Assembly (NCBI GenBank): GCA_048938025.1
Contig: JBHLMP010000056.1
Span: forward strand, 5,731-19,932
Length of the DNA: 14,202 nt
From: Promethearchaeota archaeon
GTDB taxonomy: Archaea; Asgardarchaeota; Lokiarchaeia; Sigyniarchaeales; SOKP01
Reading direction: 5' to 3'
A program made the position numbers and the translations under genes. The notes beneath the pieces are model-generated. The model was not told the origin of the DNA. It did no database searches and was given only the letters and a program-made list of their open reading frames with translations. Numbering within the stretch: the first letter of the stretch is position 1; every line of letters begins with the position of its first letter. This document shows positions 55 to 1,713 of the stretch, one piece after another.

Positions 55-1713
55 TTAATATAATATAATTCCGAATGCTAGTAGTACCAAACTTAAGACA
101 AATAAAATTTTATTTACCACACTAAATATTGGATATTCTTCTTGAATTTCTCTTGGACTTGTAGCCATTGTGTATCCACTAAATGACATTGTTGAGAAGA
201 AAGTAATCCAAAAGTAAAAACATATATGCCAGAGTGTATAATTTATTGAATCATGGATTAAATAGGATAAACTCCCGAAGACAATAATATTAATTGTCCC
301 AAAAAAAATCCCTTTGAATATGAATCTTCTAGTGAATTTAGAAAGGGGAAATAATAGTATTATATTTAAATTCGCAAGTAGTATCCAGAGAGTAATTTCA
401 CCAATCCACCATAATTTATTAAACCAATTTATTGCTAAGAATAGTATTATTAGAGCAATTAAAGGTAAGAGAAATAATTTTCGGAATAAAAATGTCGTGT
501 GAGTTATTCCGGCACGAATTCGATAAAATAGTGTAAATTTTGCAAGTTTCATAATTTTAGGTTTTCGAACTGGTTTATCCTCTATAAATTGAGGTATATG
601 TTTAGACCACACGGGACCATATTTAATTTTAAATGGAAATTGTTCTGACTTATTCGGCAGCTGAGGTATTGCCACTCCTCCAGCTGAGAGTTGCGGGAGT
701 AGTAAGATTTTTTCTTTAGTTAGATTTTTAATCTCTGTCGCTTCTACAGCCTCAAGAAGCTGGTTATTGCCAAAATCATTACCACGAGCAGCACACCATA
801 CATTTATTCCATTTGAATCTAAACATAATACCCAAGCATCGATTCCTTTAAGATCACGCATAACTTTAATATATGTAAATTCGTAATTGGCAGTTACAAT
901 TATCGGTGATGTTTCATTAGGAGTCCCAGATTGATATATTCCAGGTTCAATAGGAACGCGATCAACTTGTCCTGTAAAAATACAACGATAAATTCTTAGT
1001 TGTGATCGCAGTCCTGTAAATCTCTTTTTATTAGGTCTATAATAACCAGGCTCATTTTTTTCATTATCATTAACTTTTTGTAGTTCTATTGCTTGAATCG
1101 AACCATGTTTCCATCTTTTTAGGGAATTGATTTTAAATCCTATAGGTTCTATATAATTAAAAAACCTTTTAACTAAAAATGTACTCTTTAAGCGAAGTCG
1201 TTTTAATTTTTTTCTATACCACCATCTTTTAATCTTAAATGTTAATTTCCAAAAACCAGAGGGTATAAACTCAGCAGCTAAAATTAGGCGTCCATCTTGT
1301 TTTAAAACGTTCCAAACGTTCCTAAGGAAGATTTGCTGTTCTAAAGGGCGAAGTTCAGATAACATAAAAGTACTTACAACTATATCTTGAGAGCGAGAAT
1401 CAACCTGTAGCTCATTAAATGAGCCAATTTGATATACTAGTTTGCCAGTAGATAAATCATTAGGATAATTTTGCATTGCATAATTAATCATATGGAAATT
1501 TCTATCAATAGCAATAACATTATTCCCTTTTAAAGCCAATTTTGTCGCAAGAGAGCCAGTTCCACATCCTATTTCTAATATTGGCCCTGAAGAATTGGTA
1601 TGATTTATAACCCAGTCTTGAACTTCAAGATTTACTCCCTTTGTAAGAGAAGTAAATTTAGAATCATAAGATTCTGGTTCCTCTTCCAGTTTTCGCATAT
1701 ATACGACTGCCAT
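55..1713 (-). CDS. Fusion of a class I SAM-dependent methyltransferase and an HgcA-like corrinoid-binding/transmembrane protein
   Basis: N-terminal ~215 aa: motif I LEIGCGTG (1555-1578), VIAIDRN, QDIVVSTFMLSE, VLKQDGRL. Middle: HgcA/CdhD-type EPGIY..G.P..SPIIVTANY, WVLCLDSNGINVWCAARG (NVWCAARG at 781-804), LLPQLSAGGV, YGPV. C-terminus: about 5 hydrophobic helices with FSGYTMATS..EIQEE, resembling the HgcA FTGxSxxTS..GVxxE motif. Confidence 0.88.
   Translation of the reverse strand: MAVVYMRKLEEEPESYDSKFTSLTKGVNLEVQDWVINHTNSSGPILEIGCGTGSLATKLALKGNNVIAIDRNFHMINYAMQNYPNDLSTGKLVYQIGSFNELQVDSRSQDIVVSTFMLSELRPLEQQIFLRNVWNVLKQDGRLILAAEFIPSGFWKLTFKIKRWWYRKKLKRLRLKSTFLVKRFFNYIEPIGFKINSLKRWKHGSIQAIELQKVNDNEKNEPGYYRPNKKRFTGLRSQLRIYRCIFTGQVDRVPIEPGIYQSGTPNETSPIIVTANYEFTYIKVMRDLKGIDAWVLCLDSNGINVWCAARGNDFGNNQLLEAVEATEIKNLTKEKILLLPQLSAGGVAIPQLPNKSEQFPFKIKYGPVWSKHIPQFIEDKPVRKPKIMKLAKFTLFYRIRAGITHTTFLFRKLFLLPLIALIILFLAINWFNKLWWIGEITLWILLANLNIILLFPLSKFTRRFIFKGIFFGTINIIVFGSLSYLIHDSINYTLWHICFYFWITFFSTMSFSGYTMATSPREIQEEYPIFSVVNKILFVLSLVLLAFGIILY

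Follow-up and report, generated by a model that had tools for sequence, protein, structure and literature searches.

The DNA analyzed here, a stretch of 14,202 nucleotides (nt) from a Promethearchaeota archaeon (the window; contig JBHLMP010000056.1 of assembly GCA_048938025.1, positions 5,731-19,932), contains a gene whose product joins a CpaM-like methyltransferase, an HgcA-like corrinoid domain and a domain of five transmembrane (TM) helices in a single chain of 552 amino acids (aa). The open reading frame (ORF) occupies positions 55..1713 of the minus strand, a strand that the first-pass annotation of the window had left unstated, and starts with ATG. We consider it somewhat better than an even bet that this fusion is the large subunit of an Asgard HgcAB-type corrinoid methyl-transfer enzyme onto which the methyl-loading enzyme has been fused, and that it relays methyl groups from S-adenosylmethionine (SAM) to cobalt and on to a thiophilic metal(loid). 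Architecture, conservation, partner gene, gene context and phylogeny were observed directly; the binding of cofactors, the route of the methyl group and its acceptor are deduced.

The first-pass annotation had read a class I methyltransferase, a cobalamin-binding domain and a TM domain in this one ORF, and Pfam, NCBIfam and AlphaFold2 all confirmed it. The N-terminal domain (residues 1-213; 1075..1713, minus strand) is a class I SAM methyltransferase of the CpaM-like type (NF043040; Pfam Methyltransf_11/25/31). Methyltransf_11 covers residues 46-145 with 55.7 bits, and the Pfam class I methyltransferase models together span residues 40-167. Residues 3-212 align with positions 2-215 of the 216 in the CpaM model NF043040; the score of 137.3 bits misses the cut-off of 180, and CpaM is the best NCBIfam family for the N-terminus by about 90 bits, the runner-up family reaching 44 bits. 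A resemblance of the N-terminal string YMRKLEEEPESYD (residues 5-17) to CpaM-like enzymes, noted in the first-pass annotation, was thus supported. The same domain scores 21.8 bits with the ArsM model NF008823, below the cut-off of 263. It is followed by a linker (residues 214-234; 1012..1074, minus strand) that is gapped and variable in the alignment of fused proteins and disordered in the AlphaFold2 model, where it lacks secondary structure and the predicted local distance difference test (pLDDT) falls to 79 at residues 211-220.

The middle of the protein (residues 235-390; 544..1011, minus strand) is a corrinoid-binding domain of the type found in HgcA and in corrinoid iron-sulfur proteins (CFeSP), as judged from PF03599 and from alignment to CFeSP gamma subunits, whose C-terminal domain (2h9a/4c1n) provides its sole solved relatives by sequence. 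It includes the cap-helix motif NVWCAARGNDFG (residues 304-315; 769..804, minus strand), with the codon for Cys307 at nt 793-795. The membrane domain (residues 395-551; 61..531, minus strand) consists of five helices predicted by AlphaFold2 at 395-427, 431-458, 464-487, 490-514 and 520-551, and the HgcA profile matches through residue 546; the chain terminates in this domain and includes no ferredoxin domain. The model, built on 37 fused homologues, has a mean pLDDT of 88.6 and a predicted template modelling score of 0.86, with a Rossmann-type domain at 1-213, an alpha/beta domain at 235-390 and the five long helices at 395-551. A Foldseek search of the PDB returned the deposited HgcAB model 9a0b_A as top match (E 1.4e-12), followed by class I methyltransferases. 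The searches with profile hidden Markov models (HMMs) proposed in the first-pass annotation gave a divided result. The CdhD model PF03599 was passed, with 54.7 bits at residues 239-344 (cut-off 24.8), whereas the NCBIfam cut-offs were all missed: that of CpaM, as above, that of HgcA (NF040863; residues 254-546, 162.2 bits, cut-off 275) and that of the HgcAB-like family (NF043039; 163.8 bits, cut-off 285, covering model positions 14-254 of 350 only).

To place the protein within the HgcA superfamily, residues 235-552 were used in an exhaustive HMMER search that returned 936 representatives at E <= 1e-3, the best 150 of which were examined. A methyltransferase domain was present in all ten representatives of at least 543 aa and in none of the shorter full-length ones; six longer canonical forms were checked and carried none. 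The cap helices separated cleanly by group, reading NVWC(A/S)AGK in canonical HgcA (about 340 aa), AARG in the group of the window protein and other variants in the HgcAB-like fusions with two Fe-S motifs. A GK-type cap helix was found in 86 of the 110 full-length representatives. The window protein reads NVWCAARG and does not match N(V/I)WCA(A/G)GK, the form in which the earlier annotation had worded the motif. The HgcA cut-off was passed by three of three GK representatives (389-412 bits), and seven of seven fused representatives failed both the HgcA and the HgcAB-like cut-offs (171-259 bits). Two distant fused forms, P0133 and P0221, pass the CpaM cut-off with 211.5 and 192.2 bits.

A tree was built by maximum likelihood from 56 rows and 321 columns, the rows including a random draw of 30 of the 86 GK-type ones; its root was set with CdhE of the same genome, which forms a single long outgroup branch. 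The AARG proteins formed a clade with support of 100/90 (core, 100/98), and the other fused forms grouped with HgcAB-like proteins (93/90); the union of these two clades was weak (90/56). Canonical HgcA made a separate clade (98/91), and the window protein lay outside it. The corrinoid/TM part thus grouped with HgcA-like proteins, as anticipated in the first-pass annotation, and apart from CdhE. Membership of CdhD/AcsD was rejected on the basis of this placement and of a score of 66.3 bits with the ACDS/CdhE-type model NF003195 (cut-off 306; C-terminal part of the model only, positions 307-445 of 450), as compared to the 465.4 bits obtained by the genuine CdhE with the CdhE model. From the separate clades and the NCBIfam scores, the sequence of the domain is HgcA-like, and neither CdhD/E-like nor canonical HgcA. 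All named members of the fused clusters were Asgard archaea. Some fused relatives of 548 aa already carry the label 'CpaM' from the annotation pipeline PGAP, and the genomic association with an HgcA-like corrinoid protein that is listed as a trait of CpaM occurs here in the form of a covalent fusion.

A word-indexed search recovered 392 homologues, and the figures that follow refer to the best 120. Their identity to the window protein ranged from 63 to 100%, all were annotated with methyltransferase and PF03599 domains, and 117 were at least 540 aa long. All 120 contained the sequence G-I-N-V-(W/L)-C-A-A-R-G. Hence, two points of the first-pass annotation held throughout: the cap-helix cysteine was retained, Cys307 also being invariant in the 37 fused proteins used for modelling, and GK was replaced by RG. 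In the databases the homologues are named only as methyltransferase domain-containing or UbiE/UbiG-like proteins; the hosts named among those listed were Promethearchaeota/Lokiarchaeota and Hod-, Hermod-, Heimdall- and Odinarchaeota. Across the 37 fused proteins, which extend down to 29% identity, G49, G51, G53 and D70 of the SAM site were invariant, as were T274, T280, V305 and C307 of the corrinoid site. The latter four have the same spacing as Thr60, Thr66, Val91 and Cys93, as listed for HgcA from strain ND132 (PMC7305189). The possibility, raised in the first-pass annotation, that the fusion might be absent from related genomes and reflect faulty assembly was rejected, because the same fused ORF recurs in NCBI, JGI, ENA and Logan assemblies and 83 of the 301 genomes sampled from the phylum proved to hold a full-length fused match. 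These matches fell within four of 30 families: 51 of 68 genomes in the window's own family (f1), 2 of 7 in f2, 17 of 76 in f9 and 12 of 21 in f24. The copies in f9 and f24 are equal in length to the window protein and 30-38% identical to it. Two closed genomes, G259 and G239, are among those with distant fused forms. One contig (L018, DATKTW010000069.1), titled 'Candidatus Nanopelagicaceae bacterium', combines a fusion at 68% identity with the synteny of ArsR, ACR3, a 424-aa ORF and SMC that is seen in the Asgard loci, and is probably an Asgard contig inside a bacterial-labelled bin.

The window begins 54 nt past the stop codon of the fusion gene. Just outside its left edge, downstream of the fusion and on the same strand, lies a gene for a 118-aa ferredoxin (G000:C77:5228-5584). 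The interval between the two genes contains a 100-N assembly gap flanked on both sides by a 17-nt tandem repeat with a unit close to TATACCTTCTATTTTTT, the end of which makes up positions 1..54 of the window (no strand assigned), the other side lying at G000:C77:5586-5773. In the closest relatives the corresponding spacer is only about 50-100 nt long. The ferredoxin lay directly downstream of the fusion in 21 of 25 related loci, the remaining four loci ending at the fusion gene, and in eight of eight loci of the distant fused families; the gap therefore does not account for the adjacency. The protein is of the 2[4Fe-4S] type, and its best NCBIfam family is HgcB (NF040864; 48.4 bits, below the cut-off of 99); among 21 matches to the HgcB model in the genome it is the best. 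Comparison of 20 orthologues revealed two invariant CxxCxxCxxxCP motifs (C24/27/30/34-P and C55/58/61/65-P) and an invariant GCGCLW whose first cysteine (C78) stands 13 residues past the second motif; a C-terminal CC was present in 19 of the 20. Thus, the ferredoxin displays the feature set of HgcB, namely the two CxxCxxCxxxCP motifs, a cysteine some 12-13 residues later and a C-terminal cysteine. In ND132 HgcB, Cys73 sits at the matching distance after the second motif and is reported to be essential, and the HgcB cysteines are described as required and proposed to act as a metal shuttle (PMC7305189).

Complex prediction for fusion residues 235-552 together with the ferredoxin gave a score of 0.60, against 0.00 for the best of three controls, which amounts to weak support: the mark used was reached by 58 of 80 solved complexes and by 2 of 110 mismatched pairs, and at scores of 0.60 or below by only 7 of the 80 solved complexes and by both of the passing mismatches. 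The runs agreed in at least 83% of contacts, with a partner pLDDT of at least 66. The first-pass annotation had pictured a self-contained enzyme working without a ferredoxin; this was not borne out, since an HgcB-like ferredoxin gene adjoins the fusion here as in the related and distant loci counted above.

Beyond the ferredoxin gene, and likewise just outside the window, come two small ORFs (G000:C77:4481-5193; L029), one of 106 aa that contains a CAC motif and one of 120 aa. No Pfam or NCBIfam family was found for either; a protein atlas offered weak leads (Thioredoxin_3, 0.85-0.89; AlkB-like 2-oxoglutarate oxygenase, 0.92, with 135 shared features), on which nothing was built. They co-occur with the ferredoxin in 10 of the 25 loci, nine of which also have ACR3, the tenth (L021) being without upstream DNA. 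In some loci in which the fusion neighbours arsR (L015:5363-5932; L007:8253-9424), the two are separated by a gene for an NADPH-dependent FMN reductase, and two flavin-reductase-like genes and a cupin gene come after the ferredoxin. These are possible electron-supply genes.

A second module of related composition was found in the same genome at G000:C23:23531-25303 (L030:5532-7304). There, a free-standing cpaM gene (220 aa; 239.6 bits, passing the CpaM cut-off) stands immediately before the gene for an HgcAB-like fusion protein (364 aa; 364.5 bits, passing the cut-off of that family) with the cap helix NVWCGACG. Each half of the window protein is 32% identical to its counterpart at this locus, which has no ars genes nearby. 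The modules (methyltransferase, Cys-cap corrinoid/TM protein and ferredoxin) are therefore joined in two different ways, a classical argument for working together; by this Rosetta-stone logic, the sequences suggest that the three modules act jointly.

In the cycle that we propose, the HgcB-like 2[4Fe-4S] ferredoxin would reduce the corrinoid to Co(I), and the N-terminal CpaM-like domain would then move the methyl group of SAM to the cobalt, yielding CH3-Co(III) under the Cys307 cap helix. Finally, at the membrane face made by the five TM helices, the ferredoxin would present a thiophilic metal(loid) through its thiols (Cys78/Cys80 and the C-terminal Cys-Cys), and the methyl group would pass to it. 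In this lineage, the genes would form an operon reading acr3, fusion, hgcB-like, with a divergent gene for a CVC-type ArsR, an arrangement that points to As(III)/Sb(III) as the favoured acceptor of a pathway presumably independent of ArsM. Purified HgcAB is reported to use SAM as methyl donor by way of methylcob(III)alamin with a Co-thiolate, the methyl group then being transferred to Hg (PMC11588087), and methylcobalamin is stated in a review to be able to methylate As(III) (PMC6950371).

Some of the evidence weighs against the relay. The fusion misses the three NCBIfam equivalog cut-offs (HgcA, HgcAB-like and CpaM), the predicted complex with the ferredoxin is only weakly supported, and the relay as applied to the AARG clade is a deduction from sequence. 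Furthermore, purified HgcAB is described as using SAM without a separate methyltransferase (PMC11588087); hence the fused domain is not obviously needed for loading the cobalt and may do something else. Methionine synthase, in which SAM and a reductant rescue the oxidised Co(II) form, offers a model. The SAM domain could be a repair module that performs such a rescue with the ferredoxin, the normal chemistry of the protein being different (halomethane dehalogenation, for example) or drawing on another methyl donor. A low-potential ferredoxin beside a SAM-binding domain fits the logic of reductive methylation, SAM use by HgcAB with no added methyltransferase fits it as well, and HgcAB in E. coli is reported to dechlorinate CCl4 besides methylating Hg (preprint 10.64898/2026.04.26.720869). 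On the other hand, the conserved neighbourhood contains no gene for another methyl donor system (such as a MeTr/MtaB-type TIM barrel), the methyltransferase is a full, conserved class I domain that is fused or adjacent across three clades, and the conserved Cys-rich tail of the ferredoxin suggests the handling of a thiophilic substrate. For these reasons we regard a repair function as rather unlikely and retain the relay from SAM through cobalt to a metal(loid).

The arsenic-related genes lie immediately upstream of the fusion. ACR3 exports As(III), and a gene for an ACR3-family arsenite efflux permease of 366 aa (1738..2838, minus strand; TIGR00832, 279.1 bits for a cut-off of 282.8; Pfam SBF) shares its strand with the fusion gene and ends 24 nt upstream of it, a spacing that suggests one transcript. 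It is the only ACR3 match in the genome, which is 96.7% complete. Divergent from it is the gene for a 134-aa metalloregulator of the ArsR/SmtB family (3013..3417, plus strand; NF033788, 75.1 bits for a cut-off of 55; Pfam HTH_5). The ERCVCE sequence of this regulator aligns with ELCVCD of its best PDB match, Lmo1102, and an extra CNCSEC is present near the N-terminus. The intergenic region between acr3 and arsR (2839..3012, no strand assigned) is presumed from its position to hold promoter and operator; an operator search in this spacer found imperfect AT-rich palindromes only, none of which was identified as an operator. No protein of the genome reaches the ArsM cut-off, the best scoring 67.3 bits versus 263. 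These neighbours, which the first-pass annotation had not mentioned, make its suggestion of a substrate other than Hg plausible.

Upstream context was counted in 25 species-representative loci, 23 of which have upstream DNA. ACR3 was directly upstream of the fusion in 12 and ArsR in 15, and one or both were found in 17 of the 23. Within the window's family, ACR3 is adjacent (57-110 nt) in 25 of the 52 genomes holding the fusion, spread over three genera, and lies about 1 kb off in one more; this last case belongs to genus g6, where the other of the two genomes has the adjacent arrangement. It is possible on this basis to propose that the lineage methylates arsenite, and perhaps antimonite, independently of ArsM through the CpaM-HgcA fusion and its ferredoxin, under ArsR control and in co-transcription with ACR3, the methyl group passing from SAM to cobalt to As(III). 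We put this specific version forward only tentatively and as an unlikely one, as much speaks against it. ACR3 adjacency tracks kinship, occurring in 21 of the 22 genomes of genus g4 but in only 3 of the 20 that belong to the genus of the window. Neither ArsR nor ACR3 is present at 6 of the 23 testable loci, where a gene for a conserved membrane protein of about 195 aa is found instead, and among eight distant fused loci ACR3 occurs in none and an ArsR-type gene in one. ACR3 is not known to act as an exporter of methylated products. In several genomes, acr3, arsC, arsR and arsM are reported as neighbours of canonical hgcAB genes as well, yet the products of the latter methylate Hg (PMC7438021); consequently, the acceptor cannot be read from an ars context. 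In P. mercurii ND132, the As products are tentatively described as thioarsenicals and, by the authors' summary, loss of hgcAB causes no significant loss of As resistance (preprint 10.1101/2022.10.17.512643). Housekeeping genes (SMC, the 424-aa ORF and a PAN-type AAA ATPase), finally, are co-syntenic in the same loci as the ars genes.

This last observation also agrees with a view in which the ars neighbourhood is inherited synteny and the enzyme methylates a non-metal membrane acceptor (a thiol, a lipid or a quinone-like compound) or acts in corrinoid handling. The dependence of ACR3 adjacency on phylogeny, the different neighbours of the distant fused genes (a PEMT/ICMT-like methyltransferase, a Na/Ca exchanger and a radical SAM protein) and the UbiE/UbiG-like source annotations can all be accommodated in this way. 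We nonetheless consider it unlikely, since ArsR abuts the fusion in the absence of ACR3 at L007, L008, L010 and L024 and an ArsR-type gene is found again at L033, the one such case among the distant loci, whose fusion is 30% identical to the window protein; moreover, the ferredoxin retains the metal-handling cysteine pattern of HgcB, and the 24-nt gap to acr3 suggests co-transcription. In the subclade without ars genes (L019, L020, L022, L023 and L027), ArsR is replaced by a divergent gene for a conserved membrane protein of about 195-203 aa (N-terminus M..E..SDE.FW); no Pfam family was found in the L023 copy, the only one scanned.

Alternatively, the protein could be a working mercury methylase, that is, an HgcA orthologue with the SAM function in its fused domain, for which Hg(II) is the physiological, or at least the main, acceptor and the ars genes are merely co-regulated neighbours. 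The Cys-on cap helix, the five TM helices, the HgcB-like partner with its Cys73 equivalent and C-terminal CC, and the structural match to 9a0b_A would all be expected of such an enzyme, and so would the neighbourhood, as canonical hgcAB occurs beside ars genes (PMC7438021) and is reported to be under an ArsR-like regulator responsive to As and S-adenosylhomocysteine (preprint 10.1101/2022.10.17.512643). Against these stand the replacement of GK by RG in every one of the best 120 homologues, the HgcA score (162 bits for a cut-off of 275, compared to 389-412 for the GK-type representatives) and the position of the protein outside the canonical clade, beside the HgcAB-like one. We judge this alternative quite improbable. 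Overall, the gene context ties the fusion family to arsenic biology in a lineage-limited manner and does not identify the acceptor; the methyl relay to a thiophilic metal(loid) is the reading that we prefer.

No description of the fusion or of CpaM was found in the open-access literature searched. Lin et al. (2023) place some Asgard sequences in a clade of fused HgcAB, and their methods state that the first 327 alignment positions were dropped as poorly aligned; the N-terminal domain of these sequences may therefore have gone unremarked. The fusion bears on what HgcAB-type proteins natively do and on where their methyl group comes from. It was not until 2024 that SAM was shown to be the donor of HgcAB, a result described as unexpected (PMC11588087); a methyltransferase-HgcA fusion that is natural and conserved adds an independent genomic argument that corrinoid chemistry in this superfamily is fed by SAM. 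Fusion and ferredoxin, a compact system of two genes, lend themselves to expression and assay, and their place beside ArsR and ACR3, in a genome that has no recognisable ArsM, renders a long-suspected process, the anoxic, corrinoid-based enzymatic methylation of As, directly testable. The proteins are common in Asgard metagenome-assembled genomes, many of them labelled as sediment-derived. Their annotations go no further than generic or UbiE-like methyltransferase, and they would escape surveys of hgcA and arsM. If the arsenic reading were true, HgcAB-type proteins would be an ancient family of metal(loid) methylases, with Hg methylation as one offshoot or side reaction.

The remainder of the window carries genes of other kinds. 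The segment 3598-9558, a conserved block beside the ars cluster, encodes the 424-aa ORF, for which there is no family, the SMC protein (1162 aa) and ORFs of 216 and 171 aa without clear families, which we would guess to be kleisin/ScpB-like partners of SMC. At 9572-11022, a 211-aa ORF resembling small GTPases (GTP_EFTU, 22.6 bits, below the cut-off) overlaps by one base with a family-less ORF of 271 aa. The segment 11247-14127 encodes a pair of membrane-anchored paralogues of about 250 aa, which belong to no family and whose signal/anchor sequences at the N-terminus are near-identical. It also encodes a NosD-like protein of 334 aa, a right-handed beta-helix anchored at its C-terminus.

When set against known systems, the fusion would, to judge from its sequence, work most like HgcAB and like the pairs formed by CpaM and HgcAB-like proteins; it fails membership of the HgcA and HgcAB-like families and, narrowly, of CpaM. 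With HgcA/HgcB of the P. mercurii ND132 type (NF040863/NF040864) it shares the CFeSP-type corrinoid domain, a cap-helix cysteine equally spaced from two threonines, and five TM helices, which are reported to define the C-terminal domain of HgcA (PMC7305189). It also shares a separate 2[4Fe-4S] ferredoxin with a Cys73 equivalent and a C-terminal cysteine pair, the vicinity, in some genomes, of ars genes and an ArsR-type regulator, and SAM as methyl source, which has been demonstrated for HgcAB and which the fused domain implies for the window protein. It differs in possessing the N-terminal SAM methyltransferase domain of 213 aa, in a cap helix with AARG in place of A(A/G)GK, in scores far under the equivalog cut-offs and in its separate clade; its ferredoxin partner, unlike HgcB, has a longer Cys-rich tail (GCGC, CxC, CC).

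In the CpaM plus HgcAB-like pairs (NF043040 and NF043039), too, a CpaM-type methyltransferase is coupled to a Cys-cap corrinoid/TM protein and a ferredoxin module, cpaM comes first in the gene or domain order, and the nearest clade in the tree (90/56) is theirs. The joints are placed differently, however: in the window protein methyltransferase and HgcA form one chain and the ferredoxin is separate, whereas in the pairs HgcA and ferredoxin are fused and the methyltransferase is separate. The pair in the same genome is, as seen above, only 32% identical in either half, with GACG in its cap helix and no ars genes. The large subunit of CFeSP and the gamma subunit of ACDS (AcsC/CdhE), together with MeTr, present a homologous PF03599 domain (PDB 2h9a, 4c1n and 4djd) and the shared logic of a methyltransferase that loads Co(I) on a carrier protein; unlike them, the fusion lacks the N-terminal Fe-S/TIM-barrel part, has a cap-helix cysteine ligand and a TM domain, and employs a methyltransferase of the SAM rather than the methyltetrahydrofolate type. 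ArsM works without a corrinoid, methylating As(III) directly at a Cys triad of its own, and the 21.8 bits scored on NF008823 set the fused domain apart from it. What the fusion has in common with ArsM/AS3MT is a class I SAM methyltransferase encoded in ArsR-controlled ars clusters and, should the arsenic reading be right, a methylated metalloid as the outcome.

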